The notes under the pieces: model-generated | The model's input: only the letters and a program-made list of their open reading frames with translations | Databases searched by the model: none | What the model was told of the DNA's origin: nothing | Assembly: GCA_037481815.1 (NCBI GenBank) | Contig: JBBFKX010000002.1 | Location: 15,300-79,299 of the forward strand | Reading direction: 5' to 3' | From: a candidate division WOR-3 bacterium | GTDB lineage: Bacteria > Hydrothermota > 32-111 | DNA: 64,000 nt | Part shown: positions 15,287 through 50,300 of the stretch, one piece after another | Layout: each line of letters opens with the position of its first letter | Numbering within the stretch: position 1 is the first letter of the stretch | Translations under genes and position numbers: made by a program

Positions 15287-15341
15287 ATCCCCCTCCTGAC
15301 AGCGAAATAACCATCAAATTTTTTATAATAATTAGAAAAAT

Positions 15342-16469: not shown

Positions 16470-17218
16470 AAACTCTTAACCATCCTATCCTCATAAATGT
16501 TGAATATAAGATATCCAATAAGTACAAAAATTATTGCGAAGAAAATGGAATTTATAGTAACTGTTACATCTGGTAGATTTGAATAAAAAAGTATATTCTG
16601 GATCCCTATAACATAAACAGCAACAGGGTTTATAAGATACAGGTGAATAAAATTGTATGGCACGAGTTCAAATGGGTAAAATACTGGACATAGAAAAAAT
16701 AATGCCTGAACAAGTATCTCCCATCCTGCCTTAACATCTTTGAAAAAAACATAAATTATGGAAAGAATTGTTGATATACCAAAAAGAAAAAATGAAAATA
16801 TTATAATGTAAGGAATAAAAAACAGAGAAATAAAAGGAAAAGATTTGTTTATAACGATATAGAAAATTATGTAAATCACATATTCAAAAAAAACTATTAT
16901 AAGATTTGAAATAACAAGTGATAATGGTAAAATCAACCTTTCGATCTTAACCTTTAAAATCAATTCTCTGTTTCTGTGGAATAACTGTAAGGATTGTGTT
17001 GTTGTATTGACAAAAAATCTCCATAAAGTTGTTCCAGCAAGAATAAAAAGTGGATAATTTTTCATGTTGAATCTCATAAACCTGTTAAAAACGATATAGA
17101 TTATGATCATCAAAAAGAGAGGTTCAAAAATTATCCAGAAAAAGCCCAACAATGAATTTTTATATTTCGTTTTAAGATCTGATTTTATGAGTTCAACTAT
17201 TAGATCAAGATTTATCAT
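16466..17218 (-). CDS. ABC-2 type polysaccharide exporter permease (Wzm/TagG-like)
   Basis: 250 aa, about 6 TM helices, translationally coupled to the Wzt-like ATPase. Confidence 0.7.
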   Translation of the reverse strand: MINLDLIVELIKSDLKTKYKNSLLGFFWIIFEPLFLMIIIYIVFNRFMRFNMKNYPLFILAGTTLWRFFVNTTTQSLQLFHRNRELILKVKIERLILPLSLVISNLIIVFFEYVIYIIFYIVINKSFPFISLFFIPYIIIFSFFLFGISTILSIIYVFFKDVKAGWEILVQALFFLCPVFYPFELVPYNFIHLYLINPVAVYVIGIQNILFYSNLPDVTVTINSIFFAIIFVLIGYLIFNIYEDRMVKSL

Positions 17219-20414: not shown

Positions 20415-21375
20415 AAATGTGAATATCGCTCTTGTAGGAGCAACAGGTCTTGTTGGAAGAGAATTTTTAAAACTTGTTGAAGAAAGGGATTTCCCTTTTA
20501 AACAGTTGTATCTTTTTTCTTCAAAAAAAAGTGCTGGAACAAAATTTAAAGTAAAAGGTAAAATCCATACTGTTAAAGAGTTTGATAAAGATGATTTTCA
20601 AAATATAGATCTTGCATTCTTTGCTACTTCTGCGGAAGAATCCACAAAATATATAGAAGAGATTAAAAAATTTAAAACGGTTTGCATAGACAACTCTTCA
20701 GCTTTCAGATTGAAAAAAAATATTCCCCTTGTGGTCCCTGAGATAAATTTTCATATGATAAAAAGTAGAACAAAAATAATAGCTAATCCAAACTGTTCTA
20801 CGATACAACTCGTTTTGGTATTAAACAGTTTGTTAACAATTGAAAAAATACATTCCGTGAACGTTTCAACATACCAGGCGATATCAGGTGCAGGGAAAGA
20901 TGCTTTGACAAAATTCTTTGAACAAAAAGATGGTAGATATAAAAAGGGAGAACCAGTTTTTTTCAATAACCTAATACAACACATCGGGAATTTTAATCAA
21001 GATTGGTGCGAAGAGGAAAATAAAATAATCAACGAAACAAGGAAAATTTTAAACGAAAAGAGTTTAAATGTTTCTGCAACAACCATTAGAGTTCCTGTTA
21101 TAAATTCTCACACTGAGGTTGTTATGGTAGAGTTTAAAAGAAAAATTGATTTCAAAAAGGTAGTTGAAGTCCTTCAAAAAACCCCATATCTGATACTGTT
21201 AAAAGAAACCGACCCTATCTCTGTCTCTGGAACCAACCTTGTTTTTGTTTCCCGCCTAAGAAAAGATAAATTCTTAGATAACAGAATCCATTTTGTTATT
21301 ACTGCGGACAACCTAAGAATAGGTGCTGCCCTCAACGGTATAAAAATAGCCGAAAGGATAATATATGAAAGTTAA
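20398..21375 (+). CDS. asd: aspartate-semialdehyde dehydrogenase
   Basis: VGATGLVG NAD motif; active-site region NPNCSTIQL; the ORF-track start is a TTG overlapping lysC, and an in-frame GTG at 20416 is an alternative. Confidence 0.85.
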   Translation: MNLSNRNVNIALVGATGLVGREFLKLVEERDFPFKQLYLFSSKKSAGTKFKVKGKIHTVKEFDKDDFQNIDLAFFATSAEESTKYIEEIKKFKTVCIDNSSAFRLKKNIPLVVPEINFHMIKSRTKIIANPNCSTIQLVLVLNSLLTIEKIHSVNVSTYQAISGAGKDALTKFFEQKDGRYKKGEPVFFNNLIQHIGNFNQDWCEEENKIINETRKILNEKSLNVSATTIRVPVINSHTEVVMVEFKRKIDFKKVVEVLQKTPYLILLKETDPISVSGTNLVFVSRLRKDKFLDNRIHFVITADNLRIGAALNGIKIAERIIYES

Positions 21376-22525
21376 AATAATTTTTTTGATTTTGTTTCTT
21401 ACAAACATTTACCTTTTTTCTGCTTTCGATGACGCAATCATTGTTTCTGAAATAAATATAGATTCAACCAATTTCCCCTATTTAAATTTGAATATTGAGA
21501 TCCCATCTAAGGATATAATTTTTTTAAAGGATAGTTTAGGATATTTTTCAAAAATAAACATCATATTCACCTTTTTAAAAGGAAATGATAATCCCATACT
21601 TTCAAAAGAAATAGATACAACAATAAAATATGATACTTTCCCATCATCCATTGATACGCTGATAATAAAATTTAAAAACATTTCTTTAAATGTTCCAGAG
21701 GAAACAAAAAAATTGGTAATAAGTATTCTCGACAAAAAAACCGATAGATCAAAAAATTTTATTTTTAAAGTCGAGATACCAAAGATACCACAGACAGGCA
21801 ACTATCTTAAAAGTTTTTCAATAATAAATGGAACAAATGGTTCATTTTTCGCTGGAGAAACGATAAAAGTTGAAACTAAATTATTTAAAAGGAATGAGAA
21901 ACAGGGAAACTACAATCTTTTGATAATCGATCAAAACGAAAGGATAGTTTTCAAGAAAAAGTTCGCTTCTAAAAATTTAACTGATACCCTTTTGATAATC
22001 AAGGAACTTTATGGTGGGAAATACAGGTTGAAAATCGAATATATTGAAGATAATAAAATCACAAATTTTCTAACAAAAGACCTGTTTATAAAATTCTCAT
22101 TCATAAACTCGGAAAATGAATTCCAGGATATTTTAAACGCTTTATCTTATATCGCTAAATGGGATGAATTAGATAAACTGAAAAAATCCACAAAAGAAAA
22201 TAGAGAGGAAGAATGGAACAGGTTCTGGATAAAACAGATTTCAGAACCTATTATAACAACGAATATTTCTTATGCTGAATTTATGGAGAGGTACAACTAT
22301 TCGAATAAAAATTTTTCAGGATTCAAAAAAGGTTATAGAACAGATTTTGGAAGGATATATATAATTTATGGGAAACCTGATGAAATTGAAAGACATCCAT
22401 TTGATAAAGATAGTAAGCCATATGAGATCTGGTACTATTACAAAAACAACATACAGTTTATCTTTGTTGATGTAAATGGCTACGGAGAATATGTTCTACA
22501 GAATTATCTTGAACAGTTGAGGTGA
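21365..22525 (+). CDS. secreted GWxTD-like domain protein
   Basis: Signal peptide; C-terminal WNRFW...GYRTDFGRIYIIYGKPDE...YEIWYY segment resembles the GWxTD domain signature. Confidence 0.5.
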   Translation: MKVKIIFLILFLTNIYLFSAFDDAIIVSEINIDSTNFPYLNLNIEIPSKDIIFLKDSLGYFSKINIIFTFLKGNDNPILSKEIDTTIKYDTFPSSIDTLIIKFKNISLNVPEETKKLVISILDKKTDRSKNFIFKVEIPKIPQTGNYLKSFSIINGTNGSFFAGETIKVETKLFKRNEKQGNYNLLIIDQNERIVFKKKFASKNLTDTLLIIKELYGGKYRLKIEYIEDNKITNFLTKDLFIKFSFINSENEFQDILNALSYIAKWDELDKLKKSTKENREEEWNRFWIKQISEPIITTNISYAEFMERYNYSNKNFSGFKKGYRTDFGRIYIIYGKPDEIERHPFDKDSKPYEIWYYYKNNIQFIFVDVNGYGEYVLQNYLEQLR

Positions 22526-23841
22526 ATATGAGAATTTTTAAAATTTTGATTTTGACACTTTTTTCAATAAATGTTTTTGCAAACTATGATGTATCGATTA
22601 CATCTTTTAAAGCAAAAGATAACATACATCAAATATTTTATGATATCCAGTTCTACGCAAAGGATATCACGTATAAAAATGTCGATGGAAAAAATACCGG
22701 GATTCTACATTTTAAAATTTTTGTTAAAAACCTTGAAACATCACAGGAAATATATGATGAATGGAATTCAAAATCTTATATTTCACAATCTGAACAACTC
22801 AACAGAGAAATGTTCCTTCTCGATCGATCATCTTTTATCCTCTCTCCTGCAAAATATGAAATAAGAAGTTTGATAGTTGATTCTTTTTCAAAAAAGGAGT
22901 TTTCAAAAATCGATACGATAATTTTAGAAACTTTTGACAGTAAACCAACAATTTCAAATATACTTGTAGGATACACCGTAAAAAAAGATTCTCTTGAAGG
23001 TAAATTTACAAGAAACGGATATTCAGTTACTCCAAATCCATCAAAAATATTTACTCTTGTGAACCCTTTGATTTATCTGTATTTTGAAATTTATAATTTA
23101 CACAACAAAGAATATACTCTTGATTACCTTATATACAATGATAAAGATTCATTGATCACAACAATAAAAGGTGAAAAGAAAATATCGCCTCCTTTCGATT
23201 TTGTTGTGAATAACTTTTTCAACACTCTTGGTTTTAAAGATGGAAAGTATAGATTGGATGTCAAAATAAAATATGATGATAAAGAAATTCTTCAATCAAC
23301 AAATTTTGAAAAAATTTCAAACCTCTATACAGGCAGAGAAACCAAATATATTCTAACAGAAGAGGAAATGAAATATTATTCTTTAATAGATTATATTGCA
23401 ACTCCTTCCGAGTTAACACAGTTCAAATCCATAAAAGATGAAAAAGCAAAACATAATTTCCTTCTAAATTTCTGGGAAAGGAGAGATATCGATAAAACAA
23501 ACGATAAACTCGAATCTTTGAAAGATTTTATCTTAAAAGTTAAATATGTCAGAAAAAATTTTTCATCGGGTGGAGAAGATGGCTATCTTTCAGCGAGAGG
23601 AAGGATATATTTAAAATATGGTCCACCGGATGAAACATTACTTGTTCCGATGAGTAAAGGATCAAAAAATTATGATTCCTGGATTTATTATTCGAAAGGT
23701 GGCATGCAGTTCATCTTTATGGATATAAAAGGATTTGGTAAATATGAACTTATATATACAAATGTTATGGAAGAGGAGATACCACAAAATTGGACAAATT
23801 ACATTGACGATTACAATATAATCCAATTTTATAGAAATTAA
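22522..23841 (+). CDS. secreted GWxTD-like domain protein (paralog of upstream gene)
   Basis: Signal peptide; C-terminal FWERRD...GYLSARGRIYLKYGPPDE...YDSWIYY segment parallels the upstream gene. Confidence 0.5.
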   Translation: MNMRIFKILILTLFSINVFANYDVSITSFKAKDNIHQIFYDIQFYAKDITYKNVDGKNTGILHFKIFVKNLETSQEIYDEWNSKSYISQSEQLNREMFLLDRSSFILSPAKYEIRSLIVDSFSKKEFSKIDTIILETFDSKPTISNILVGYTVKKDSLEGKFTRNGYSVTPNPSKIFTLVNPLIYLYFEIYNLHNKEYTLDYLIYNDKDSLITTIKGEKKISPPFDFVVNNFFNTLGFKDGKYRLDVKIKYDDKEILQSTNFEKISNLYTGRETKYILTEEEMKYYSLIDYIATPSELTQFKSIKDEKAKHNFLLNFWERRDIDKTNDKLESLKDFILKVKYVRKNFSSGGEDGYLSARGRIYLKYGPPDETLLVPMSKGSKNYDSWIYYSKGGMQFIFMDIKGFGKYELIYTNVMEEEIPQNWTNYIDDYNIIQFYRN

Positions 23842-23842
23842 A

Positions 23843-25414
23843 ATGAAAAATTTTGATATTATTGTTGTAGGTTCAGGAATCGCTGGTTTAACTTTCGCAT
23901 TCAAGATTGCACCTTATGTTAACAATGTTTGTTTGATAACCAAGAAAAGTATTGAGGACTCAAACACAAACTATGCTCAGGGAGGAATCGCTGCTGTTTT
24001 TGGAGAAGATGATTCTTTTGAACTTCATATAAAGGATACTATCGAAACGGGAAGATATCTATCACATAAGGATGCTGTTGAGATAATGGTTATGAACGGT
24101 CCCAAACTCGTTCTGGAACTCAAAGAACTTGGAGCAAAATTTGAAATAGATGAAAATGGGAAATTTAAACTTGGTAAAGAAGGTGGGCATTCAAGAAGAA
24201 GGATTGTTCATGCCGGCGATTATACGGGATATGAAATTGAAAAAACACTTATAGAAAATATAAAAACCTACAACAATGTTTTGATGTTCACCAACCATTT
24301 TGTCTGTGATCTGATCGTTGATGAAAACAACCTATGCCAGGGTGTTTATGTTCTCGATGTTGAAAAAAATGAGATAGAGCCATATTTCTCTCAGTTCGTG
24401 GTGATCGCAACAGGCGGATGTGGTCAGGTTTACAAATTTACAACAAATCCCATGATCGCAACAGGTGATGGTATTGCGGTTTCATATCTTGCAAATGCCA
24501 AAATAGCAAACATGGAGTTCTTTCAATTTCATCCTACAGCTTTATACAACTCCGAAGAGATGGGGAGATCTTTTTTGATCTCCGAAGCTGTGAGAGGTGA
24601 AGGAGCATTTTTAAAATTGAAAGATAACAGGCAATTCATGCATAAATACAGCGAAAAAAAATCTCTTGCTCCAAGAGATATCGTTGCAAGAGCCATAGAT
24701 AATGAATTAAAACTTTCAGGAGAAGATTTTGTTTACCTTGACCTCTCTCCTTTCACAGAGAAAAAATTTAAAGAAAGATTTCCCAAAATATATGAAAAGT
24801 GTAAACAGATGAACATAAATGTTCCCTATGAACCGATACCTGTTGTTCCAGCAGCACATTATTCGTGTGGTGGTATTTATACTGATACAAATGCAAGGAG
24901 TTCTATTAAAAACCTCTATGCAATAGGTGAAGCCGCATGTACGGGAGTTCATGGAGCAAACAGATTGGCATCAAATTCATTGCTTGAAGCTCTTGTTTTC
25001 GCTGATCAGGCCTTTCGTGATGTGAGGGAAAAATTGAAAGAACCTTTTGAAACCACTGTTCCAGGATTTTACAGTCAGCCAAAACCTATAGATCAAGAAA
25101 CAAGGAAAATTTTGTTCGAATTGAGAAGAAAACTTAAAGAGATAATGTGGAAGAAGGTTTCAATCGTAAAAACTGTAAAATCTTTAAAAGAAGCTGATGA
25201 GCAACTAAACATTCTATCAGAAACATTTTTCAATCTTGAAAATTACAATACTGTTGAATATTTTGAGGTCAGAAATATGATAATAGTTTCAAAAATTATA
25301 ATAAACTCAGCACTCAAAAGAAAAGAATCGAGAGGATTACATTTTGTAAAAGATTATCCTGAAGAGAAAAAGGAATATTTACATGATACAATTATTCAAA
25401 AGGAGGTTTTATGA
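23843..25414 (+). CDS. nadB: L-aspartate oxidase
   Basis: FAD-binding N-terminus IIVVGSGIAGL, flavoprotein core (HYSCGGI, RLASNSLLEALVF); 523 aa. Confidence 0.85.
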   Translation: MKNFDIIVVGSGIAGLTFAFKIAPYVNNVCLITKKSIEDSNTNYAQGGIAAVFGEDDSFELHIKDTIETGRYLSHKDAVEIMVMNGPKLVLELKELGAKFEIDENGKFKLGKEGGHSRRRIVHAGDYTGYEIEKTLIENIKTYNNVLMFTNHFVCDLIVDENNLCQGVYVLDVEKNEIEPYFSQFVVIATGGCGQVYKFTTNPMIATGDGIAVSYLANAKIANMEFFQFHPTALYNSEEMGRSFLISEAVRGEGAFLKLKDNRQFMHKYSEKKSLAPRDIVARAIDNELKLSGEDFVYLDLSPFTEKKFKERFPKIYEKCKQMNINVPYEPIPVVPAAHYSCGGIYTDTNARSSIKNLYAIGEAACTGVHGANRLASNSLLEALVFADQAFRDVREKLKEPFETTVPGFYSQPKPIDQETRKILFELRRKLKEIMWKKVSIVKTVKSLKEADEQLNILSETFFNLENYNTVEYFEVRNMIIVSKIIINSALKRKESRGLHFVKDYPEEKKEYLHDTIIQKEVL

Positions 25415-25698
25415 ACATAAGAATTACAGGTAAACATCTTGAAATTTCACCAGAAATAAAAAATTTTATTGAAGAATCCTTAAAACACCTTGAAAAATTT
25501 GAACATAATATAATCGATTGTAATGTAGTGGTCGAATTGAATGGAAGAAGATATAAAGTCGAAATAGATGTTGATGTAAAAAAACATAGATTCGTTTCTT
25601 CAGATGAATCTTTCGATCTCATGACATCGATAGATAAAGCGATTGATAAAATGAAAACCCAGCTTAAAAAGTTTGAGGAGAAAAAACATGACAGATAA
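25411..25698 (+). CDS. hpf: ribosome hibernation-promoting factor (HPF/RaiA family, short form)
   Basis: 95 aa; MNIRITGKHLEISPEIK N-terminus is the classic HPF start. Confidence 0.8.
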   Translation: MNIRITGKHLEISPEIKNFIEESLKHLEKFEHNIIDCNVVVELNGRRYKVEIDVDVKKHRFVSSDESFDLMTSIDKAIDKMKTQLKKFEEKKHDR

Positions 25699-26686
25699 TG
25701 TAAAACAAAGAAGTGAGTTGAGCGTAGAAGACCTTTTTAAAGACAACAAAGAGGAATTAGTTTTGAAAGTGGTGTCAGGGAACAACGGGATGACAAACCT
25801 TATTAAAAGCAAAGAGGTTATAAATGCTGGACTCGCTTTTGCAGGATATACAGAACATATTCAAAAAAGCTCCATAATAGTTGCCGGTGATGTAGAACTT
25901 GATTTTTTTAACAACCTGAACAGTTCAAAGAGAAAGCTCTTTTTAAACTCAATCTTTGAAAAAGGATGTGCTGCTTTATTTATCGTAACTGAAAGAAATA
26001 TCCCTAAAATAATAAAAATACTTTCAAACAAAAAAGGTATCCCGGTTATTACAAGTAATAAAACTATATACAATACGATAAATAAACTCTCACTTTACCT
26101 TTCAAGCAAACTTGCTGAATCGATAACAAAACATGGAACACTTGTAGATATTTATGGTGTTGGAGTTTTACTTACAGGCAAAAGTGGAATCGGGAAAAGT
26201 GAGTGTGCTCTTGATCTTGTAGATAGAGGTCATCGTCTCGTTGCTGATGATGCTGTTAAAATTTATAAAAGAGGAGAGCATATTTTAATGGGAACAGGGA
26301 TTGCACCTGATTCGTCAATCCAATATCATATGGAAGTCAGAGGTGTCGGAATACTCGATATAGCCAAAATATTTGGGATAAGAGGTGTCAGATTGCACAA
26401 AAGAATCGAGATTGAGATAAACCTGATAGAATGGAAACCTGACACTGATATCGAAAGGGTCGGACTCAAAGAGGAAACATCCAACATTCTCGGAGTCGAA
26501 ATCCCTTTAGTTAAAATACCACTTTTACCAGGTAAAAATATTTCAGTTATAGCAGAAGTTGTAGCACTTAACCATCTTTTAAAAATTTCAGGTTATGACA
26601 CGAGCAAGGTCTTCAATGCTACACTGATAAAACTTATGCAGGAAAAAGCAAAAAAACTGGCAAGACTTGATGAGGACGAAGAATGA
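25673..26686 (+). CDS. hprK: HPr kinase/phosphorylase
   Basis: P-loop GKSGIGKSE followed by LVADD; 337 aa; the start may instead be the ATG at 25688. Confidence 0.85.
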   Translation: MRRKNMTDNVKQRSELSVEDLFKDNKEELVLKVVSGNNGMTNLIKSKEVINAGLAFAGYTEHIQKSSIIVAGDVELDFFNNLNSSKRKLFLNSIFEKGCAALFIVTERNIPKIIKILSNKKGIPVITSNKTIYNTINKLSLYLSSKLAESITKHGTLVDIYGVGVLLTGKSGIGKSECALDLVDRGHRLVADDAVKIYKRGEHILMGTGIAPDSSIQYHMEVRGVGILDIAKIFGIRGVRLHKRIEIEINLIEWKPDTDIERVGLKEETSNILGVEIPLVKIPLLPGKNISVIAEVVALNHLLKISGYDTSKVFNATLIKLMQEKAKKLARLDEDEE

Positions 26687-27063
26687 TATACGGAATTTTT
26701 ACAGGTCATAACAATTTTGCATACGAAACAGTTAAAAGCTGCGAAAGTATAATCGGTGATCAGCAAAACTATTCAACAATTTCAAACAGAGAACTTTCAA
26801 ACGATGAGATCTATGAGCAGTTTGAAAAAATTTTAAAAACTCATCCTGATTGTAAAGAGTTTTTCATATTTATAGATTTCTATGGCTCTTCAATCTCACT
26901 TCCTGCAATAAAGATTAAACAGAAAACAGAAAAGGAAACAATTAAACTCATATTCGGGTATAATCTTCCGATGGTTATCGATTTTTTTCTTCACAGGAAT
27001 AAATTGACTGGAGAACAACTTTTCGAAAAAATCATCGATGTTGGAAAAAGAGGTATAAGATGA
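26683..27063 (+). CDS. PTS EIIA component, mannose-family-like (orphan, regulatory)
   Basis: 126 aa; N-terminal IFTGHNNFA with the conserved His position of EIIA-Man; no EIIC/EIID in the window. Confidence 0.6.
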   Translation: MIYGIFTGHNNFAYETVKSCESIIGDQQNYSTISNRELSNDEIYEQFEKILKTHPDCKEFFIFIDFYGSSISLPAIKIKQKTEKETIKLIFGYNLPMVIDFFLHRNKLTGEQLFEKIIDVGKRGIR

Positions 27064-27530
27064 AAATATTAAGGATAGATGACAGGTTGATCCATGGACA
27101 GATAATCGCTGGATGGCTACCAAATCTTGGTATTTCAAACATTTTGCTTTTCAACGAATCTTTACCTTTAGATATGTTACAGATCTATAAAAATATGATA
27201 CCGGAAGATGTAAATCTCCAGATTATTGATATAAATCATATTGATATGATCCCTGATAAAAACTCTTCCATATACCTTTTTGAAAATATAAAAACCTTAA
27301 AAAATAATTTGAACAAACTTGAAAATATCAGTTTTGACATTTTTAATCTTGGTGGAATGAGGAACAAAGATAACAAACAAAAAATCTTGGATTTTATTTA
27401 TATGGATGAAACAGATATAGAAGATTTCTTCGCTATAGTAAAAAGTTTGAAATTAAAAAAAATCAACGCTCAACAGTTGCCAACAACACAATCTTATGAT
27501 ATAAAGAGAATTCTCGAAAGAAGGAGTTGA
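27060..27530 (+). CDS. PTS EIIB component, mannose/sorbose-family-like (orphan, regulatory)
   Basis: N-terminal [10 protein letters not shown] motif containing the phosphorylatable His of EIIB-Man/Sor. Confidence 0.65.
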
Positions 27531-27531
27531 G

Positions 27532-29202
27532 ATGAAAAAGAAAAATAGGACAAGAAGTTTACTGACAACTATAATCATCACAGTTATTCCCTTTTATGTT
27601 GCTTTCCTATTCATCATTCTTTTCTTTATCGAATACAGAAACATTTCACATCATAACAAAGATACTGAGGATTATTTTAGAAGTATAATGGATAACTATT
27701 CATTTTCATCAGCAAATTACATCCAGAGAGATGATACAAATGGTATATTAATCATATTAAACAATTTTTTAAAAATGCCTGACTTTAAATTTGCTCTGGT
27801 TCTTGATTCAAACCTTCAAATATTCAACTATCTGAAGAGCGATAATAAAAATGAAATGATCATCTCAAAAGAAATCGCTAAAAATTCTATACAAGATCTG
27901 AAGATTTTAAAAGAGTTTAACAAAAATCTTCTAATCGATGTCTATTATTCACCTATATATTATGAAATGAACGGAGAAAGAAAACCTTTAGGTGTTCTCT
28001 GTGTCGGTTTATCAAGAGGTGAAAATGTAAATGCGATAATAAGTATACTCCTTCAGACATTTGCGATAATAGCGGTTTCGCTTATTCTATTTTTCCTGAT
28101 TTTACTCCTTCTTTACAGAAGAATAAAAAATCCTATAGCGATGATAACACAGGAGATGAAACAGATAAATGAGGGAAAGGGTAATATAGAAAACCGTAAA
28201 ATAACCGTAGAAGCAGAGAGAGAAATAAATGAGTTGATCGAGGAGTTCAACAAGGTTCTTGATTTTCTTTATAATATAAAAAATAATGTTTCGATCATAA
28301 CAAACCAATTAAATGAACACATTGAACTTTTATCATCTTCATCTGAGGAACTAACCGCCTCATCGGAAGAAATCACTTCAACGATCCAGGAAATTTCTCA
28401 GAATTCCTCTGAACAGGCAAAAAAAATCGAAGAGGTTTTCCAGAAAACAGAATCAACAAAATCAAGTATAAACACATCTTTTGATAAAACAAAGATGAAC
28501 GAGGAATTCTCTTCAAAGATTAACGAAGTCACAATCACAGGAAAAGAACTATCAAAAAAAGCTGTTGAAAAGATTGAAACAATCATAAACAGTTCGAATG
28601 AACTTTATGAAAAAATAAAAGATATAAATGAAAAACAGGAAAAAATATCTATAATAACCGACACTATAGAATCGATAACCAACAGAACAAACATTTTATC
28701 ACTCAACGCATCGATTGAAGCTGCAAGAGCTGGAGAGTATGGAAAAGGATTTCAGGTTGTAGCAGAAGAGATAAGAAAACTTGCTGAAAAATCCCAAGAA
28801 TCTGCGTTGGCTATACATGGAATAATAAATGAAATCAAAAGTTCAATAGAAATACTCATAAATCAAAGTAGATCAAACGAATTTGTCCTTAACGAAGGGA
28901 AAGATGTAATCATGAATACATCCGAGGTTCTTGAAAATATAAGCAACAGCATATCTTCAATAACCGAAAACAATAAGAGCATCTCAAATGAAATTAAAAA
29001 TGTAAAAGCGATTATAGATGAGTTCAGTTTAACGATAAACGAGGTGGTAAAAATCTCCGAGACAAACGCTTCAGCAAGTGAGGAGATCGCTGCAAGTATA
29101 GAACAACAGGGAGCTTCAATAGAAGAGTTGGCTTCAAGTGCCCAACAACTTTATGAAATAATCGGAAAACTTAAAGATATAGTTAATAAGTTTCAGGGAT
29201 GA
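27532..29202 (+). CDS. methyl-accepting chemotaxis protein
   Basis: Two TM segments flanking a ~150-aa periplasmic region, HAMP, highly conserved signalling segment [33 protein letters not shown]. Confidence 0.85.
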
Positions 29203-29203
29203 A

Positions 29204-29791
29204 TCACAACCTTTGAAGGATCATCTTTGAAACAGCTTTGAGTGTTTCAAACACACCGATTCCCTGAGTTGCAACCGCTTCAAAATATGGTACATTCCAG
29301 GGATTCAACGCCTGTTGTAGATCCTCTATCGATGAAATATTCGGTAGATCCCTTTTGTTGTACTGCATTACAAATGGGATGTCTTCTATTTTAAGGTTAT
29401 GCTCAGCAAGATTTTCAAGAAGATTGTCAACACTTTCTATGTTATCTTCAAACCTTTCAATCTGTGAATCAGCAACAAATACTATTCCATCAACTCCTTT
29501 AAGGATCAATTTTCTTGATGCGTTATAATAGATTTGCCCTGGCACGGTGTAAAGTTGAAATTTTGTTTTAAAACCTTTTACTGAGCCAATATCCATAGGT
29601 AAAAAATCAAAAAACAAAGTCCTGTCCATCTCTGTTGCAAGAGAGATCATCTTTCCTCTTGTCTCTGGACTTATCTTGTTGTATATCACTTTCAAATTTG
29701 TTGTTTTCCCTCCTAAACCTGTTCCATAGTAAACTATCTTAAATGTTATCTCTCTTGATGAGTAATTAATAACTGACAACTTTTCCTCCAA
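29204..29791 (-). CDS. mglA: Ras-like small GTPase MglA
   Basis: 195 aa; near-identical signature blocks to MglA ([56 protein letters not shown]). Confidence 0.85.
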
Positions 29792-29793
29792 TT

Positions 29794-30291
29794 TTACTTG
29801 AACAGATCATCAAGTTCACTTTCTGCTGCCTTTTTGAAATCTTCGTTAAAAGTATCTTTCATTCTTTCTGTGTTACTGCTCAATTTAGCAAATATATTGT
29901 TGAAAATCCTTTCGAGTTCAGTAACAGTTGTTTTGATTCTTATTCTGATAAGTCCAAGGTTTGTGGTTTTACCAAAAATAACAACGAGGATTATTCTTGA
30001 TAGAATTATTGTTATATAAATATTTTCCTGTTTACCCTGATGAAAAAGTTCTGTAAACTCATCTTCACCTATAAGTAATGCAAGTTGACTCGTTGCTGCA
30101 AAATCTGCTGCTGCAAGTGAGCCAAACGAAACAAGGTCAAGGTTTGAAATATTTCCAACAGAAGTAATAAGTTGTCCTGCCTTGTCGACAAGAAGTAGTG
30201 CAGTTGCGTTTGTCGATGTTAAAAGTTTGTTTAATGAGTTATTTATATCCCAGAAATCTTGTTCAAATATGCTCAGATTTTCATAACTCAA
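29794..30291 (-). CDS. mglB: Roadblock/LC7-domain protein, MglB-like GAP partner of MglA
   Basis: 165 aa; immediately upstream of and co-oriented with mglA; roadblock-like composition and size. Confidence 0.65.
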
Positions 30292-30299
30292 AAATCCTC

Positions 30300-31223
30300 C
30301 TATCTATTTGAACATTCCTCTTTCTTCAAAAGGTTCTGATACTTTTCATTCAAAAATCTTCTTAACTCCTCAACAAGTTCAGGATTATTTTTAAGGTGTT
30401 TAAACCTTTGCTGTCTGAAAAGGAAATCCTCTAACGGTCTCTCTCTTTTTGGCTTAACATTCACCTTATATTTACCATTTTCATATTCATAAACATTCCA
30501 GAAATGTGTTGAAACAGCAAGTTCTGCAAGTTCAACTGTTTCAGATGGCTCTGAGCCCCAACCAAGTGGACATGGGGAAAGAACATCTATGAACGATGGA
30601 CCATCAACTTTTAAAGCTTTTTTTACTTTTTCAACAAAATCGTTCCAATAAAAAATAGATGCCTGTGCTACATAAGGAATATTGTGTGCGATCATGATTT
30701 CTGTAAGATCCTTTCTGTGTTGCATTTTTCCTTTGATACTTTTTCCAGCAGGACTTGTGGTGGTGTTTGCTCCAAAAGGTGTTGCTGAAGATCTCTGGAT
30801 ACCTGTGTTCATATATGCACCGTTATCATAACACACATACAAAAGTTTATGCCCTCTTTCCATCGCACCTGATAAAGATTGTAAACCGATATCATAGGTC
30901 CCACCATCACCACCAAAAGCGATTATGTTTATATCCTTGTTAATCTTCCCTTTTTTCTTTAAAGCTCTGTACGCACTTTCGATTCCACTCGCTGTTGCTG
31001 CTGAATTTTCAAAAGCGTTATGCATAAAAGGAACCTTCCACGATGAATATGGGTATATCGTTGAAACTACCTCCATACATCCGGTTGCTCCAACAAAAAC
31101 CGTATTCTCACCTGCCGCAGCAGCGATAAGTCTTAAAATTATTGTTCCCCCACACCCAGCACATGCTCTATGTCCCGGGGTGAACAGATTGCCTTTACTT
31201 GCTAACTCTTTTATATTTGCCAT
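30300..31223 (-). CDS. porB: pyruvate/2-oxoacid:ferredoxin oxidoreductase beta subunit (TPP-binding)
   Basis: GHRACAGCGG motif, TPP-binding GGDGG region; 307 aa. Confidence 0.85.
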   Translation of the reverse strand: MANIKELASKGNLFTPGHRACAGCGGTIILRLIAAAAGENTVFVGATGCMEVVSTIYPYSSWKVPFMHNAFENSAATASGIESAYRALKKKGKINKDINIIAFGGDGGTYDIGLQSLSGAMERGHKLLYVCYDNGAYMNTGIQRSSATPFGANTTTSPAGKSIKGKMQHRKDLTEIMIAHNIPYVAQASIFYWNDFVEKVKKALKVDGPSFIDVLSPCPLGWGSEPSETVELAELAVSTHFWNVYEYENGKYKVNVKPKRERPLEDFLFRQQRFKHLKNNPELVEELRRFLNEKYQNLLKKEECSNR

Positions 31224-31232
31224 TTTTTACTC

Positions 31233-32408
31233 CTACTCTCTAACAGTTATATATCTGACAGGATCACCTTTACCATTCTTTTCAGTGAAATCTTTAATAT
31301 CATAAAAAACTTTTTCGATATCATCAACATCAATATCCCTTCCCCCAAGGCCATAAACATAATCTCTCAAAATTGGCTTTGATGAGGAAATATACAAAGC
31401 AGATTTGATATCGTTGAAAAGATGCCCACCGGTTCCTGAGAACATATCACTCCTATCAAAAACAGCACAACCTTTAATATTTTTTAAAGATTCAATTATA
31501 TCTTCCTCAAAGAATGGTCTATAGAATCTTATTTTTAATGATCCAACTTTATGACCATCTTTTCTTAGTTTATCAACAACATATCTTATCGTTCCAGCTG
31601 TTGAACCAAGAGCAACAAGACAATACTCAGCATCATCCATCATATATTTTTCAACAACATTATAATTTCTTTTCATGTTTTTGTTAAAATCTTTCAGAAT
31701 CTCTTTTATCTTAGTTTTAGATTCTCTTATAAAGTTTGCCTGCTGGACCTTCACTTCCATATAATAATCCTGTAAAGCAAGAGGCCCGACGGTTATGGGA
31801 TTATCAACATCAAGAATATTGTACGGTGTCTTTGGTTCGCCAAGGTATTTTTTTACCTCCTCATCATCATACATCTCAACTCTTTGCATAGCATGGGAGA
31901 TTATGAAACCATCTGTTGTAACCATCGATGGAAGAAAAAGATTTTCAGAAATTTTTACAGCCAGAATCGTTTGATCGTAAGCCTCCTGTGGATCTTCTGA
32001 AAAAATCTGTATCCAGCCAGCATCCCTTGAAGCCATTGTATCAGAATGATCACAGTGTATGTTTATTGGAGCGGATAATGCTCTGTTGACTTCACATATT
32101 ACTATTGGCAACCTTAAACCACCTGCTATAAATAGAATTTCATGCATAAGAGCAAGTCCCTGCGATGAAGTCCCTGTCATAACTCTTGCCCCAGCTGCCG
32201 ATGCACCAACACAGGCTGAAATCGCTGAATGTTCAGATTCTGTTGGAACAAAAACTGTATCAACTTCTCCGTTATTAACAAAGGAAGAAAATATTTGAAC
32301 TATTTCCGTAGCAGGGGTTATTGGATATGCAGCGACAACATCAGGATTTATCTGTCTCATCGCTTCAGCCATAGCTTCATTACCCGTTTTTGCAACTATT
32401 TTTGACAT
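31233..32408 (-). CDS. porA: pyruvate/2-oxoacid:ferredoxin oxidoreductase alpha subunit
   Basis: 391 aa; conserved N-terminal MTGNEA-like region of the alpha subunit; operon context. Confidence 0.8.
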   Translation of the reverse strand: MSKIVAKTGNEAMAEAMRQINPDVVAAYPITPATEIVQIFSSFVNNGEVDTVFVPTESEHSAISACVGASAAGARVMTGTSSQGLALMHEILFIAGGLRLPIVICEVNRALSAPINIHCDHSDTMASRDAGWIQIFSEDPQEAYDQTILAVKISENLFLPSMVTTDGFIISHAMQRVEMYDDEEVKKYLGEPKTPYNILDVDNPITVGPLALQDYYMEVKVQQANFIRESKTKIKEILKDFNKNMKRNYNVVEKYMMDDAEYCLVALGSTAGTIRYVVDKLRKDGHKVGSLKIRFYRPFFEEDIIESLKNIKGCAVFDRSDMFSGTGGHLFNDIKSALYISSSKPILRDYVYGLGGRDIDVDDIEKVFYDIKDFTEKNGKGDPVRYITVRE

Positions 32409-32426: not shown

Positions 32427-32702
32427 TCATTTCTCTTCTTTTATCATATCGATAGCATCAAAAGGACAAACCTTACTACAGATACCACAACCTTTGCAGT
32501 GATCATAATCTATTCCTATCATTTTTCCATCTTTTATTATAATCGATGAATCAGGACAAAAAAGCCAGCACTGTAAACACTGTTTACATTTGTCACTCTT
32601 ATACAAAGGTTTTTCAGATCTCCAGTCACCAGTTTTGAATTCTTCCGCTGTTCCACCTTTTACTATAAGAGCTATATCAACTTCTTTCCAATTTTTTTTC
32701 AT
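32427..32702 (-). CDS. porD: pyruvate:ferredoxin oxidoreductase delta subunit (2x[4Fe-4S] ferredoxin)
   Basis: 91 aa; two CxxCxxCxxxCP-type cysteine clusters. Confidence 0.8.
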   Translation of the reverse strand: MKKNWKEVDIALIVKGGTAEEFKTGDWRSEKPLYKSDKCKQCLQCWLFCPDSSIIIKDGKMIGIDYDHCKGCGICSKVCPFDAIDMIKEEK

Positions 32703-33280
32703 TCTGAAACAACCTCCTCATAAGCCCTTTTTATGGATTTGATGTTTCCATCAACAACTTCGGGCTTATTTGCAAATTTCTTTTTCAATTTCTCTTCAGT
32801 ATCTTTTAACATTCTTTCAAAATCAAGAATTTTTGTCACCTTAACCAATGCCCCAAACATGGGTGTGTTAGGTTTATTTGCACCTATTTCTTCCAGAGAA
32901 ATTTTTGAAGCATCAACAGTATAGATTTTTATATTCTTATTGATCTTATATTTCTCTCTTATCTCTGATGGTTTTTTTACAGTGTTAACTATAAGTATTC
33001 CACCATCTTCCATTCCAGAAGTGGTATCAACTGTATCCATAAGCGATTGATCAAGAACCACAACAACATCGGGATTTTTGATCGGGGAATGTATCGTTAT
33101 CTCTTTGTCGGACAACCTGTTAAAAGATTGAACCGGTGCTCCCATTCTTTCAGGTCCATACTCTGGAAAAGCCTGGATATATTTACCTGTAGCCAGAGCT
33201 GAATCTGCAAAAAGAAGTGCAACAGTTTTTGCTCCCTGACCACCACGTCCATGCCATCTGATCTCAAAAAAATCTTTCAT
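32699..33280 (-). CDS. porG: pyruvate:ferredoxin oxidoreductase gamma subunit
   Basis: 193 aa; RWHGRGGQGAKT motif typical of the gamma subunit. Confidence 0.8.
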   Translation of the reverse strand: MKDFFEIRWHGRGGQGAKTVALLFADSALATGKYIQAFPEYGPERMGAPVQSFNRLSDKEITIHSPIKNPDVVVVLDQSLMDTVDTTSGMEDGGILIVNTVKKPSEIREKYKINKNIKIYTVDASKISLEEIGANKPNTPMFGALVKVTKILDFERMLKDTEEKLKKKFANKPEVVDGNIKSIKRAYEEVVSE

Positions 33281-33388
33281 CGTTTAACCTCCGATTCATT
33301 AAAACTATATTATATTTTAACTCTTTTTAAAGTCAAGAAAATTTTCTTTTCTATTGATTTATTGCTTAAAACAATTAAACTATCATTT

Positions 33389-36690: not shown

Positions 36691-37257
36691 ATGTATAAAA
36701 AAGAGATTGAAAGAAGGTTTCTTGTTATCGATAAAAACTATTCTAAAAAGATATCATTTTTTAACAGGAAAAGAATAATTCAGGGATACTATAGGTCCGA
36801 GGATTTAAAAAAAATAAAAGGTGTTGATGAAATTTTAAAAAAAAATCCTGAATTTATAAATAAAATCGTTAGAATAAGAATTGAAAATAAAAGAGATATC
36901 TTTTTTACACTAAAAAAAGGTGAAGGAATTGAAAGGGATGAATTTGAAATAAAACTTGATTTCGATGAAAAAATTTACAAATTTATGAAAAGTGATAAAA
37001 AAGTTCTGTCAAAAATAAGAGGAGAATTTTTCATTGAAGGATATAAAGCAATTTTAGACAGATATACCAAAAGATACAGAGGGATTGAAATAGTTGAAAT
37101 CGAATTTAAAACCGAACCCGAAGCAAAAAAGTTTCAACCTTCAAAAAGCTTAGTCGAGATAACCAATCTTAATGAGTTATCAAATATGAGTCTCTATTTT
37201 AAGGATGAAAAAGAAATAATTAAAAAAGTTGAGGAGAATTATGGTTATAAAAATTAA
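36691..37257 (+). CDS. CYTH-domain protein (triphosphate tunnel metalloenzyme-like)
   Basis: N-terminal EIERRFLV matches the CYTH ExExK-type start; 188 aa. Confidence 0.55.
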   Translation: MYKKEIERRFLVIDKNYSKKISFFNRKRIIQGYYRSEDLKKIKGVDEILKKNPEFINKIVRIRIENKRDIFFTLKKGEGIERDEFEIKLDFDEKIYKFMKSDKKVLSKIRGEFFIEGYKAILDRYTKRYRGIEIVEIEFKTEPEAKKFQPSKSLVEITNLNELSNMSLYFKDEKEIIKKVEENYGYKN

Positions 37258-38248
37258 AAACAGGATAATAAAGAAGGGGGATATTTTTATCATCGCTGAA
37301 GGAGGGGTTAACCATAACGGTGACATGAATCTAGCAAAAGAACTTATCGTTAAAGCGAAAGAGGCAGGAGCTGATGCTATAAAGTTTCAAACATATAAAA
37401 CAGAAAAGTTGATAATAAAAAACAAAAAAACAGAGAACTTTTTTAATATGATAAAAAGATTGGAACTCTCTGAAGAAGATTTTATAAAATTAAAGGATTT
37501 CGCAATAAAAAATGATATAATCTTTCTTTCAACACCAGATGAGGAAGATTCTTTAAATTTCCTGCTCTCATTAAATCTTCCTGCTATAAAAATAGGTTCA
37601 GGTGAAGCAAACAATATCGATTTTCTCATAAAAGTTGCAAAAACGAAAAAAGTAGTTTTGATATCAACAGGATGCTGTAACGAAGAAGAAATCGATAGAA
37701 TCTATCAAACCGTATACCCTTTGAATAAAAAGATGATACTTATGCATTGTATTTCAGAATACCCTGCTAAGATAGAATCTTTAAACCTTCAATTTATAAA
37801 AAAAATGATAAAAAAATATAATTGCCCGATTGGATTTTCTGATCACACTACTTCCATATTTACTCCATCGATTGCATACATACTTGGGGCAACAGTTATT
37901 GAAAAACATTTTACGCTTGATAAAAATCTTCCAGGACCAGACCATTCATCTTCTCTTGATGTTGGTGAATTCAAAAGTATGGTTAACTTGATTTATGAAA
38001 CAAAGGAAGCACTCGGTAAAGATATAAGGAAGATAACTGAAAGCGAGGACAGGATGAGAAAGTTCATAAGAAAATCTCTTTTTTCCAAAAGTGAGATAAA
38101 AAAAGGTGAAACCTTAACAAAAGAAAATACAATCCTTTTAAGACCAGAAATAGGGATAAGGGCTGATCAGGCAACAAAAGTTTATGGAAAAAGGATAAAA
38201 ATTAAAAAAAATAAATTTAAACCAATATTTTCAAATGAGATAGATTAG
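37229..38248 (+). CDS. N-acylneuraminate-9-phosphate / nonulosonic acid synthase family (NeuB/PseI/LegI-like)
   Basis: IIAEGGVNHNGDMNLAKELIVKAKEAGADAIKFQTYK is the NeuB-family TIM-barrel signature; start ambiguous (37229 or 37241). Confidence 0.8.
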   Translation: MRRIMVIKIKNRIIKKGDIFIIAEGGVNHNGDMNLAKELIVKAKEAGADAIKFQTYKTEKLIIKNKKTENFFNMIKRLELSEEDFIKLKDFAIKNDIIFLSTPDEEDSLNFLLSLNLPAIKIGSGEANNIDFLIKVAKTKKVVLISTGCCNEEEIDRIYQTVYPLNKKMILMHCISEYPAKIESLNLQFIKKMIKKYNCPIGFSDHTTSIFTPSIAYILGATVIEKHFTLDKNLPGPDHSSSLDVGEFKSMVNLIYETKEALGKDIRKITESEDRMRKFIRKSLFSKSEIKKGETLTKENTILLRPEIGIRADQATKVYGKRIKIKKNKFKPIFSNEID

Positions 38249-38403
38249 AAGATGGTGTATATGAATGGAGAAATTGTTGTTGATGTGAATAAAAAGATCA
38301 ATAAACCTAAAAGTAAAATTATGATAATAAGAGGGAGTAACCAGTATTTTTTCTTTTTCAACAAAAATTTCATCAAAGATTTCAGAGTTTTTAAAAATCC
38401 CAT

Positions 38404-38778
38404 TTAGAACGGCTCCTCAATATCAAATTCATCTTCCACATATTTGTTGTAATACGAACTCTCTTGTTTTTTTATATTCTTATAAAACCTTTTATCCATA
38501 ATGTAAAGTATCGGCTTAAACATTAAAAAAATTATATAATAGATTATAACTACTATCAATACTGTAAAAAGAAATGCAACAAACAAAAAGAGTTTATCCA
38601 ACAATTTTTTAGCAATAAATAATTTTTTCGGTAAAAATATTAAAAATAAGAGTGAAACCACTGTTAATGAAAAGAAAAAAATTTTCAGTAATCCAAATTT
38701 TCTAAAGATAAAGGTTAACATTAAAAATATTAAAACTACCTGAACGGATTTTAACCTTTCAATCATTCCTTTTTTCAA
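38404..38778 (-). CDS. small hypothetical membrane protein (3 predicted TM helices)
   Basis: 124 aa, hydrophobic, last gene of the long minus-strand gene string; no family recalled. Confidence 0.35.
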   Translation of the reverse strand: MKKGMIERLKSVQVVLIFLMLTFIFRKFGLLKIFFFSLTVVSLLFLIFLPKKLFIAKKLLDKLFLFVAFLFTVLIVVIIYYIIFLMFKPILYIMDKRFYKNIKKQESSYYNKYVEDEFDIEEPF

Positions 38779-40549
38779 TTTTAAAATCTCCCTTTTTTCT
38801 TACCTGTTCTTCTTTTCGTAACAGAAAATTACCAATTATTAAAACATCTATATCGGTTTCGATGAAAGTTTTAAAAGCATCTTCAGGATTTTCAACTATC
38901 GGCTGTCCCCTTACATTGAAGGATGTGTTTATGACCATAGGACATCCTGTCCTTTCATAAAAATTATAGATTAGCGAATAAAACAGTGGGTTACTCTCTT
39001 TGCTCACAAGTTGAACTCTTGAAGTAAAATCTGAATGGACCACAGATGGGAACTGTGTGATACTTTTCCTAAGAATTTTAAAATCATGTGTGATAAACTC
39101 TTCAGTGTTTTTAAAATCATCTTTAATTTCACATACTGTTAACATATAATGAGTGGGATAACCCTTTTTAAAAATCAGTTCATATTTATCTTCGAGAACA
39201 GCAGGTGCAAGTGGCCTGAAAGATTCTCTGAACTTAATCTTCATGTTCATTATTTTTTGCATTTCAGGATCCGTTGGATCACCTAAAATACTTCTATTTC
39301 CTAAAGCTCTTGGCCCATACTCCATTTTCCCCTGAAACCATCCAACAACTTTTTTCTTGAGTATCTCTTCACAACCAATAACATCAGGATTGGTTATTTT
39401 TTTGTAAACACCATTTAATCTTTTTAAACTTTCCTCGATCTCATGATCTGAATATTCTGTTCCAAGAAAAGAATAATTCTGACAACCCCTGATATTCAAA
39501 TTATAATATCTGTTCGCAACATACAAAGCGGCTCCAAGTGAACCACCAGCATCCCCTGATGCAGGTTGAATAAAAAATTTTTCAGGTTTATAAGATTCTA
39601 AAACTTTAGAATTCGCAACACAGTTTAAACCAACCCCTCCCCCGATTATCAAGTTTTTTTCTTTCGTTTCACTTTTCAACTTTAAAGCCATTTTTATAAG
39701 AATCTCCTCTAAAACCTTCTGAACAGAAGCAGCAATGTCTGCATACACTTCGTTTAAAGGTTGTTCTTCTTTTCTAATCTTTATTCCAAAAAGTTTTTCC
39801 ATCTGTTTCCCACACATCTGTAAACCATTCTGGAAATCAAAAAATTTCAAATTCAATCTGTAAGATCCATCATCTTTGATATCTATCAAATTCTCTTTTA
39901 TCAGAGAAACATACCGTGGAACACCATAGGGGGCAAGCCCCATCAATTTGTATTCACCTGAATTAACTTTAAATCCAGTAAAATAGGTAAATGTTGAATA
40001 AAACATCCCTAAAGAATGCGGATAATCTATAGAATATAGGATCTTTATGCTTTTATCATCAACAACTCCAAGAGTTGTTGTTTCCCATTCTCCAACACCA
40101 TCGTTTACCATAAATGCTGCTCTTTCAAGATCAGATGGATAGAAGGAAGAAGATATGTGTGAAACATGATGTGGAACATAGAATATTTTATAATTCCCCT
40201 TAATCAATTTTCTTAATTTAGATTCAGTATAAAGTTTATCTTTAATCCACAACGGTAAAGAAGTGAAAGCAAACTCAAAATTTTTCGGCGTCGAATAAAT
40301 CAGATTTTCAATTATTCTTTCAAATTTCAAAATCGGTTTATCATAGAAAACAATTGCTTTCAGATTTCCAGGATCAAAATCGAACTTTTTTTTAAGAATC
40401 TCTATTGATAACTCTGGTAACCTTTCATCAAATTTTATTTTAGAAAACCTTTCTTCCTGAAGAGCAGCAATAACCTTACCTTTTTTTATGTACGTTACAG
40501 ACGAATCGTGAAACAATGCCGAAATTCCTAAAATTTCTATTTCACTCAT
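38759..40549 (-). CDS. carbamoyltransferase (NodU/CmcH/TobZ family)
   Basis: 596 aa; N-terminal ILGISALFHDSSVTYIKKGKVIAALQEERFSKIK matches the carbamoyltransferase N-domain. Confidence 0.8.
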   Translation of the reverse strand: MSEIEILGISALFHDSSVTYIKKGKVIAALQEERFSKIKFDERLPELSIEILKKKFDFDPGNLKAIVFYDKPILKFERIIENLIYSTPKNFEFAFTSLPLWIKDKLYTESKLRKLIKGNYKIFYVPHHVSHISSSFYPSDLERAAFMVNDGVGEWETTTLGVVDDKSIKILYSIDYPHSLGMFYSTFTYFTGFKVNSGEYKLMGLAPYGVPRYVSLIKENLIDIKDDGSYRLNLKFFDFQNGLQMCGKQMEKLFGIKIRKEEQPLNEVYADIAASVQKVLEEILIKMALKLKSETKEKNLIIGGGVGLNCVANSKVLESYKPEKFFIQPASGDAGGSLGAALYVANRYYNLNIRGCQNYSFLGTEYSDHEIEESLKRLNGVYKKITNPDVIGCEEILKKKVVGWFQGKMEYGPRALGNRSILGDPTDPEMQKIMNMKIKFRESFRPLAPAVLEDKYELIFKKGYPTHYMLTVCEIKDDFKNTEEFITHDFKILRKSITQFPSVVHSDFTSRVQLVSKESNPLFYSLIYNFYERTGCPMVINTSFNVRGQPIVENPEDAFKTFIETDIDVLIIGNFLLRKEEQVRKKGDFKIEKRND

Positions 40550-43518: not shown

Positions 43519-43519
43519 A

Positions 43520-48967: not shown

Positions 48968-48976
48968 AAAAACTCC

Positions 48977-50284: not shown

Positions 50285-50300
50285 GAAAATCCTCCTTTAT

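Follow-up and report, generated by a model that had tools for sequence, protein, structure and literature searches.

This study concerns a 64,000-nucleotide (nt) stretch of DNA (hereafter the window) from a candidate division WOR-3 bacterium (GenBank assembly GCA_037481815.1, contig JBBFKX010000002.1, positions 15,300 to 79,299), and in particular two adjacent minus-strand genes, mglB and mglA, predicted to encode a Ras-like GTPase, MglA, and its Roadblock partner, MglB. Four genes for a putative pyruvate:ferredoxin oxidoreductase, porGDAB, precede the pair on the same strand, and a gene for a methyl-accepting chemotaxis protein (MCP) converges on mglA from the opposite strand. The pair very probably represents a canonical group-1 MglA/MglB module of a candidate division WOR-3/TA06 bacterium, carried as the last two genes of a por unit and acting on an inferred polar machine, with the MCP not part of it. 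The features of the pair are as follows:

29204-29779, minus strand: mglA, predicted group-1 MglA Ras-like GTPase of 191 amino acids (aa), start at the second TTG
29785-29789, minus strand: GGAGG Shine-Dalgarno site of mglA, within the 14-nt mglB-mglA spacer, read from the sequence
29794-30291, minus strand: mglB, predicted Roadblock/LC7 GTPase-activating partner of 165 aa with a D/E-rich C-terminal extension
30296-30300, minus strand: GGAGG Shine-Dalgarno site of mglB, overlapping the porB stop codon TAG (30302-30300), read from the sequence

Window proteins were assigned with Pfam and NCBIfam profile scans of essentially all open reading frames (ORFs) of at least 110 aa in the 64 kb, MglA and MglB were compared with all PDB chains by phmmer, and the identity of MglA was determined by BLASTP. 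Related loci were collected with an MglA-based scan of one genome per GTDB species, and the best 80 of the 570 matches were kept as L001-L080; statements on relatives below refer to these 80 loci. Their ORFs were clustered for a survey of gene context, and a neighbour-joining tree was built from MglB plus MglA of the loci and the window. The closest four relatives, with 99% MglA identity, are metagenome-assembled genomes (MAGs) labelled candidate division TA06 or WOR-3. The relatives place the host in candidate division WOR-3/TA06, outside the myxobacteria; an earlier note made from the letters of the DNA (hereafter the sequence-only reading) had suggested that MglAB may be used here with a non-myxobacterial motility machine. 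The scaffold of L004 is 1.39 Mb long (JBDRZU010000001.1). L005 (DYMB01000004.1) bears the label 'Acetofilamentum sp.', the name of a Bacteroidaceae genus, but shows full WOR-3 synteny and 97% MglA identity; for this reason the label is likely wrong, and L005 is probably a WOR-3 MAG.

Start site and identity of MglA

The ORF list contains 29204-29791 (minus strand, 195 aa), 29794-30291 (minus strand, 165 aa), and 27532-29202 (plus strand), and thereby reproduces the coordinates given for mglA, mglB, and the MCP gene in the sequence-only reading; of these, the start of mglA is moved here from 29791 to 29779. The mglB-mglA junction reads TAA-aat-TGGAGGaaaag-TTG-TCA-GTT-ATT-AAT-TAC, with GGAGG (29789-29785) 5 nt ahead of the second TTG (29779), and the translation from this codon was compared with the N-terminus of Myxococcus xanthus MglA. 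The arrangement GGAGG-N5-TTG is kept at the mglA start in L001-L010, an in-frame TAA directly precedes this TTG in L009 and L010, and L011 and more distant loci carry ATG at its position. On account of the GGAGG spacing and the pattern of TTG, ATG, and upstream TAA among relatives, mglA is assigned a start at the second TTG, which gives a protein of 191 aa and an mglB-mglA gap of 14 nt. The gap of 2 nt claimed earlier is an artefact of the first in-frame TTG (29791).

In the comparison with all PDB chains, MglA matches M. xanthus MglA (6hjh) with 280 bits (E 7e-83) and Thermus MglA (3t12) with 256 bits (E 1.5e-75), whereas the best Arf, Rab, and Sar chains reach at most 31 bits (E 3e-6 or weaker). 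Identity to M. xanthus MglA is 66% over 187 residues without gaps, and with the corrected start the residue numbering of the two proteins coincides. Group 1 MglA is defined by a TVPGQ G3 motif and an intrinsic arginine beside the G2 threonine (PMC4316618). Both marks are present: TVPGQ (T78-Q82) replaces the eukaryotic DxxGQ, and the arginine finger R53 stands next to T54, accompanied by the β2-screw residues F56, F57, and F59. The G1 P-loop GxxxxGK[ST] is found as GTGLGGKT (G19-T26) and the G4 motif NKxD as N141-K-R-D144. MglA is identical to the M. xanthus protein at G19, G21, K25, T26, R53, T54, F56, F57, F59, T78-V-P-G-Q82, and N141-K-x-D144, so the strong conservation of signature blocks noted in the sequence-only reading extends to all catalytic signatures, at the same residue numbers.

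The Roadblock partner MglB

MglB matches the Roadblock/LC7 family (PF03259) with 50.7 bits against a cutoff of 23. Its alignment with M. xanthus MglB (6h5b) is gapless over 134 aa (phmmer E 1e-32), and that with Thermus MglB has an E value of 3.5e-11. By sequence inspection only, the C-terminal extension comprises about 30 residues and ends in an acidic (D/E-rich) stretch, and the α5 helix of MglA carries K181, K185, and R190. In M. xanthus, an acidic MglB C-terminal helix, in an extension of more than 15 residues past the Roadblock domain, co-evolves with an MglA pocket that involves a basic α5 helix (PMC6785124); the acidic tail and basic α5 helix predicted here match this feature. The mglB gene lies directly upstream of mglA on the same strand in all 80 related loci. 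The alignments to characterised proteins called for earlier accordingly describe a bona fide pair, and MglA and MglB are assigned, by these sequence comparisons, as a genuine canonical group-1 pair.

mglBA at the end of a por gene block

The genes upstream of mglB, together with a candidate promoter, are listed below:

30300-31223, minus strand: porB, pyruvate:ferredoxin oxidoreductase β subunit, binding thiamine pyrophosphate (TPP) (NF008819, 416.6 bits against a cutoff of 405; PF02775)
31233-32408, minus strand: porA, α subunit (NF040682, 493 bits, below the cutoff of 550)
32427-32702, minus strand: porD, δ subunit, 2x[4Fe-4S] ferredoxin-like (TIGR02179, 108 bits against a cutoff of 60)
32699-33280, minus strand: porG/porC, γ subunit, first gene of the inferred porGDAB-mglBA unit (TIGR02175, 216 bits against a cutoff of 81)
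33309-33336, minus strand: σ70-like promoter TTGACT-16-TATAAT upstream of porG (11 of 12 consensus positions)

From these profile matches, porGDAB would encode a four-subunit pyruvate:ferredoxin oxidoreductase, although 2-ketoisovalerate may be the substrate in place of pyruvate. In the window, porB and mglB are separated by 8 nt. The block porGDAB-mglB-mglA is present in every locus of a 19-locus clade among the best 80 matches (listed as L001-L007, L009-L012, L019, L032, L048, L053, L070, and L077). Those of its loci that have a phylum label are all WOR-3 or TA06 except L005, and several others are designated simply 'bacterium' or 'uncultured bacterium'. Across all 19 loci the porB-mglB spacing stays within 0-15 nt, even though identity falls to 54-62% for PorA and to 43-55% for MglB. 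Meanwhile the flanks take at least five forms, with rlmN, recR, thi4-thiE, or unrelated genes upstream and an MCP gene, an EIIB gene, a gene for a cyclic nucleotide-binding (cNMP-binding) protein, or glycosyltransferase genes downstream. In the neighbour-joining tree, the por-linked loci group with the window in a single clade that includes no unlinked locus. Because of this monophyly, the por-mglBA linkage is read as having arisen once and having been retained since.

The candidate promoter is the best promoter-like site in the region, and its footprint, TTGAC-N16/17-TATAAT, is kept upstream of porG in L001-L007 and L009 while neighbouring bases diverge. A terminator search found no minus-strand terminator-like site between porG and mglA. 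The tight spacing and the conserved promoter footprint suggest that porG-porD-porA-porB-mglB-mglA form one transcription unit.

Several observations were made on genes adjoining the block. In its listed form, an rlmN-like plus-strand ORF runs 30 nt into the start of porG (region 33251-33388); it more probably begins at a downstream Met (MESIYNY..., at about 33389), which would leave an intergenic region of about 108 nt holding the por promoter. In L048 (4941-6490) and at the equivalent positions of L053, L070, and L077, genes for Thi4 thiazole synthase and ThiE thiamine monophosphate synthase lie directly upstream of porG on the same strand, beside a TPP-dependent enzyme. In L011 (8828-9271) and L012 (10451-10894), both of a distant WOR-3 subclade, about 15 nt beyond mglA lies a same-strand gene for a small protein with a cyclic-nucleotide-binding domain, which may be an extra operon member; next in order are genes for a zinc-ribbon protein, for SecDF, and for a second cNMP-binding protein (L011 12514-12849).

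The recR context in other phyla

Outside the por-linked clade, clustering of the 80 loci showed the usual mglBA block to be dnaX-ybaB-recR-mglB-mglA-(pgpA)-cinA-thpR-recA-recX-alaS (e.g., L022 6453-18191 and L054 6611-18838), with recR directly upstream of mglB in 35 loci; the identities of RecR, YbaB, CinA, ThpR, and RecA were confirmed by profile match. Two members of the por-linked clade, L009 and L010, have recR directly upstream of porG, in the order dnaX-ybaB-recR-porGDAB-mglBA (L009 3989-10576). With recR on one side and mglB on the other, the por genes of these two loci look as if inserted exactly into an ancestral recR-mglB junction.

The chemoreceptor gene next to mglA

The plus-strand genes that converge on mglA are the following:

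25411-27530, plus strand: hpf-hprK-EIIA (Man family)-EIIB (sorbose family) (PF02482, PF07475/PF02603, PF03610, PF03830)
27532-29202, plus strand: transmembrane MCP of 556 aa, last gene of the convergent operon of phosphotransferase system (PTS) type

The MCP scores 114 bits with the MCPsignal family (PF00015, cutoff 34.6) and 22.8 bits with HAMP (cutoff 25). Its residues 261-554 align without gaps with residues 15-308 of Thermotoga maritima TM1143 (2ch7; E 5e-27). It has two hydrophobic segments and the tip motif EAARAGE at residue 396, flanked by arms of about 158 and 155 residues, and no known domain was recognised in the periplasmic sensor region (about residues 34-168). An exact-match look-up of the MCP in an index of public assemblies gave no hit. 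The protein is accordingly described, from its sequence, as an apparently ordinary receptor with two transmembrane segments of the long receptor class, by arm length presumably class '44H'. Its gene follows that of EIIB on the same strand after 1 nt. The operon that it ends holds EIIA and EIIB without EIIC or EIID, EIIB retaining its histidine motif, and the position of the MCP gene at the tail of hpf-hprK-EIIA-EIIB points to a possible chemosensory input linked to the PTS.

The MCP and mglA stop codons do lie 1 nt apart, as the sequence-only reading had it: TGA of the MCP gene occupies 29200-29202 and TGA of mglA 29206-29204, with the single base 29203 between them. The window is about 98% coding with a median same-strand gap of -4 nt, and its six convergent gene pairs have gaps of -30, 1, 1, -11, 155, and -17 nt. 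With five of six convergent pairs at 1 nt or less in DNA this dense, the 1-nt gap is no more than chance and typical here. Downstream of the MCP gene, folding gave z = -2.1 and a weak terminator-like hairpin (29325-29348, plus strand), which has UCCCUUUUGU after it and is situated 123 nt beyond the MCP stop codon, within the 3' coding region of mglA; neither a terminator search nor RNA folding gave a terminator downstream of mglA on the minus strand (z = -0.85). As no convincing terminator was found on either side, the convergent transcripts probably overlap.

The MCP gene lies downstream of mglA and convergent on it only in L001-L007, where MglA identity is 92-99% and that of the MCP 44-94%. 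In L008-L010 (MglA 84-87%), nadB-hpf-hprK-EIIA-EIIB converges on mglA, and the EIIB gene adjoins mglA without an MCP gene; the hpf-hprK-EIIA-EIIB genes are thus kept in this orientation throughout L001-L010, and loci more distant than L010 have neither the MCP gene nor the PTS-type operon. This restricted occurrence, the absence from the same junction in L008-L010, and a divergence much faster than that of MglA and its other neighbours mark the MCP, by these sequence comparisons, as an apparently recent, lineage-specific, and fast-evolving tail gene of an opposite-strand operon, and not as a partner of MglAB. It would end beside mglA for want of intergenic DNA in this genome. The MCP has no significant association with mglA, given its membership of the convergent operon and its absence from the junction in L008-L010, where EIIB abuts mglA.

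Motility genes, effectors and secretion

No pilus, flagellar, Gld/Spr, che, or Rom genes were detected in the window by the profile scans. A literature search on motility, pili, chemotaxis, flagella, and gliding in WOR-3 returned only community surveys and no statement on WOR-3 motility. The sequence-only reading had also linked MglAB to a type IX secretion system (T9SS) through a proposed cargo protein, which is listed here:

3918-6194, minus strand: protein of 758 aa, proposed T9SS cargo, with a C-terminal match at residues about 686-753

Its matches to TIGR04183 (22.2 bits against a cutoff of 23) and PF18962 (16.9 bits against 27) are both below threshold, and no T9SS machinery genes were found in the window by profile scans. 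The link to MglAB is not supported here, as it depends on this sub-threshold sorting-domain match and the window holds no Gld/Spr genes; a T9SS connection is weak.

Discussion

The assignment of a canonical MglA/MglB module at the end of a por unit has some observations against it. The NCBIfam MglB model NF052242 covers the protein over its full length, but its score of 81 bits is under the equivalog cutoff of 200; its name, MglBThm, suggests a Thermus-type basis. Promoter-like matches occur overall at chance frequency, and an internal promoter within porB is possible, which bears on the proposed single unit. No pil, fla, gld/spr, che, romR/romX, or mglC genes were found in the window or in the flanks of the 80 related loci, so the output of MglAB is deduced by analogy alone.

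It is next to inconceivable that the GTPase is a member of some other family (Arf/Sar-like, Rup, SofG-type, or group 2-5 MglA) and only looks like MglA. The Pfam Arf, Gtr1_RagA, and Ras models all match it weakly (E about 1e-7), but MglA structures outscore any Arf, Rab, or Sar chain by about 250 bits, both group-1 marks are in place, the 191-aa protein has no SofG-like extension, and a cognate mglB is adjacent. Neither the better fit to an Arf- or Rup-type family nor the missing Roadblock partner that had been considered in the sequence-only reading was found, the Arf, Rab, and Sar scores being as low as stated and mglB being paired in every related locus; another family is ruled out by these scores, the 66% identity, and the identical catalytic residues. 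Very improbable, too, is a functional unit of MCP and MglAB, in which a Frz-like chemosensory input would reset polarity and the tail-to-tail arrangement would couple expression, e.g., by convergent-transcription interference. The adjacent stop codons and the probably overlapping transcripts, with no convincing terminator on either side, would suit such a unit, and in M. xanthus the Frz chemosensory system is reported to act on the MglA/MglB module (PMC3441718). Against it stand the position of the MCP gene 1 nt behind EIIB in an opposite-strand PTS-type operon, the frequency of gaps of 1 nt or less between convergent pairs here, and the lack of cheA/W/Y or frz-like genes nearby in the window. 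The MCP has two transmembrane segments, whereas FrzCD is cytoplasmic. The phyletic pattern of the MCP, missing from the L008-L010 junction and from all more distant loci, largely rules out Frz-like control.

The por linkage itself admits two interpretations. On the conservative one, por and mglBA were brought together by one insertion event and have been inherited so since, mglBA being carried as a passenger of a strongly expressed operon. Alternatively, the conserved operon could reflect real coupling, in which WOR-3 MglA/MglB would be tuned to, or report, fermentative carbon and redox state and would not be a motility polarity switch alone, loosely like Ragulator-Rag, the Roadblock-GTPase nutrient sensors of eukaryotes; this is considered unlikely. 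It is favoured by the block being kept at 0-15 nt through deep divergence while both flanks change at least five times, by its convergence on a PTS/HPr-kinase carbon-signalling operon in L001-L010, by the thiamine-biosynthesis genes that join it upstream in one subclade, and by the lack of motility genes near any locus; a full-text literature search for MglA together with pyruvate ferredoxin oxidoreductase, counted on the same side, gave nothing relevant. On the other hand, a single origin with vertical inheritance explains the pattern without a functional link, the por genes of L009 and L010 look merely inserted into the ancestral recR-mglBA arrangement, and highly expressed operons commonly carry unrelated passenger genes. 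The protein sequences lend the metabolic input no support, because MglA and MglB are canonical and show no departure from motility proteins. A version in which MglAB is hard-wired to central fermentative metabolism, with polarity or motility tuned to the energy state or with a role outside motility in a lineage possibly devoid of the known machines under MglA control, as a bacterial parallel of Ragulator-Rag, is regarded as quite improbable. Were the linkage functional, metabolic state would be an undescribed input to a polarity GTPase; if it is not, por-mglBA serves as a synteny marker for the clade.

The canonical module proposed here would work as follows. MglA would be a Ras-like GTPase that itself supplies both the arginine finger (R53) and the catalytic glutamine (Q82). 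Binding of GTP would flip its β2 strand, after which the MglB dimer would dock, position R53 and Q82, and trigger hydrolysis; such repositioning of R53 and Q82 by the β2 screw upon MglB binding has been described (PMC3199381). The acidic C-terminal helix of MglB would bind the basic α5 helix of MglA. Judging from Myxococcus, Thermus, and Bdellovibrio, the switch would most likely mark one cell pole and direct a polar machine to it, with type IV pili the most probable candidate. In Thermus, pili are mislocalised in mglAB mutants (PMC12024867), and a Bdellovibrio precedent for an MglA-type switch is cited in PMC4316618. Type IV pili are put forward as the likeliest output only tentatively. The conserved σ70-type promoter upstream of porG would drive the six-gene unit, with ribosome-binding sites in the 8-nt and 14-nt spacers.

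The pair closely resembles M. xanthus MglA/MglB (5ymx, 6izw, 6h5b, 6hjh) in the gapless alignment of MglA at 66% identity, in identical catalytic residues and numbering, in the gapless 134-aa alignment and acidic tail of MglB, and in the order mglB then mglA on one strand. It differs in that the WOR-3 host is AT-rich (about 30% GC), that the genes are appended to a por operon whereas most non-WOR-3 loci, including those labelled Myxococcaceae or Myxococcales, have a recR-mglBA-type context, and that no Frz, RomR/RomX, MglC, Agl/Glt, or pil genes were located in the window. Thermus thermophilus (3t12, 3t1q, 1j3w) likewise has a non-myxobacterial group-1 pair, but the MglB of the window resembles that of M. 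xanthus more than that of Thermus. T. maritima TM1143-type receptors (2ch7) share the gapless cytoplasmic domain with the MCP, whose gene, unlike theirs, ends a PTS-regulatory operon.

With the group 1 MglA family as surveyed in 2014, the pair shares the TVPGQ G3 motif, the intrinsic arginine finger, and a coupled MglB. That survey, which predates WOR-3 genomes, reports group 1 MglA from many phyla, including Acidobacteria, Fibrobacteres, Gemmatimonadetes, Chloroflexi, and Deinococcus-Thermus, describes group-1 gene neighbourhoods that 'vary widely', and mentions no fixed por-mglBA linkage (PMC4316618, Wuichet and Sogaard-Andersen 2014). Since numerous phyla are known to have group-1 MglA with MglB, the occurrence of MglAB beyond the myxobacteria is well established, and the WOR-3 pair is not new in kind. 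The present results extend group-1 MglAB to candidate division WOR-3, and where many other phyla keep mglBA beside recR, WOR-3 has fixed it behind porGDAB. We know of no cultured representative of WOR-3.

Other gene content of the window

The window consists mainly of genes for polysaccharide, envelope, and lysine biosynthesis and for TamB/BamA-like proteins, besides the recombinase and the coiled-coil protein named below; Rfam gave no RNA family anywhere in it. Directly upstream of nadB is a tandem pair of genes for paralogous GWxTD-domain proteins (386 and 439 aa; 21365-23841, plus strand), kept in L001-L010. For a protein of 1310 aa (50918-54850, minus strand), the only matches are of coiled-coil type (SMC/Rad50-like), with no globular domain recognised; its gene is flanked by those of a cytidylyltransferase and a XerC/D-like recombinase. 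Two large regions for polysaccharide and nonulosonic-acid biosynthesis (10794-17218 and 37229-50915) include a Wzm/Wzt ABC exporter, several glycosyltransferases, RmlD, NeuB, a PglD/PseB-like gene, a DegT aminotransferase, two UDP-sugar dehydrogenases, a carbamoyltransferase, and Wzz/BY-kinase.

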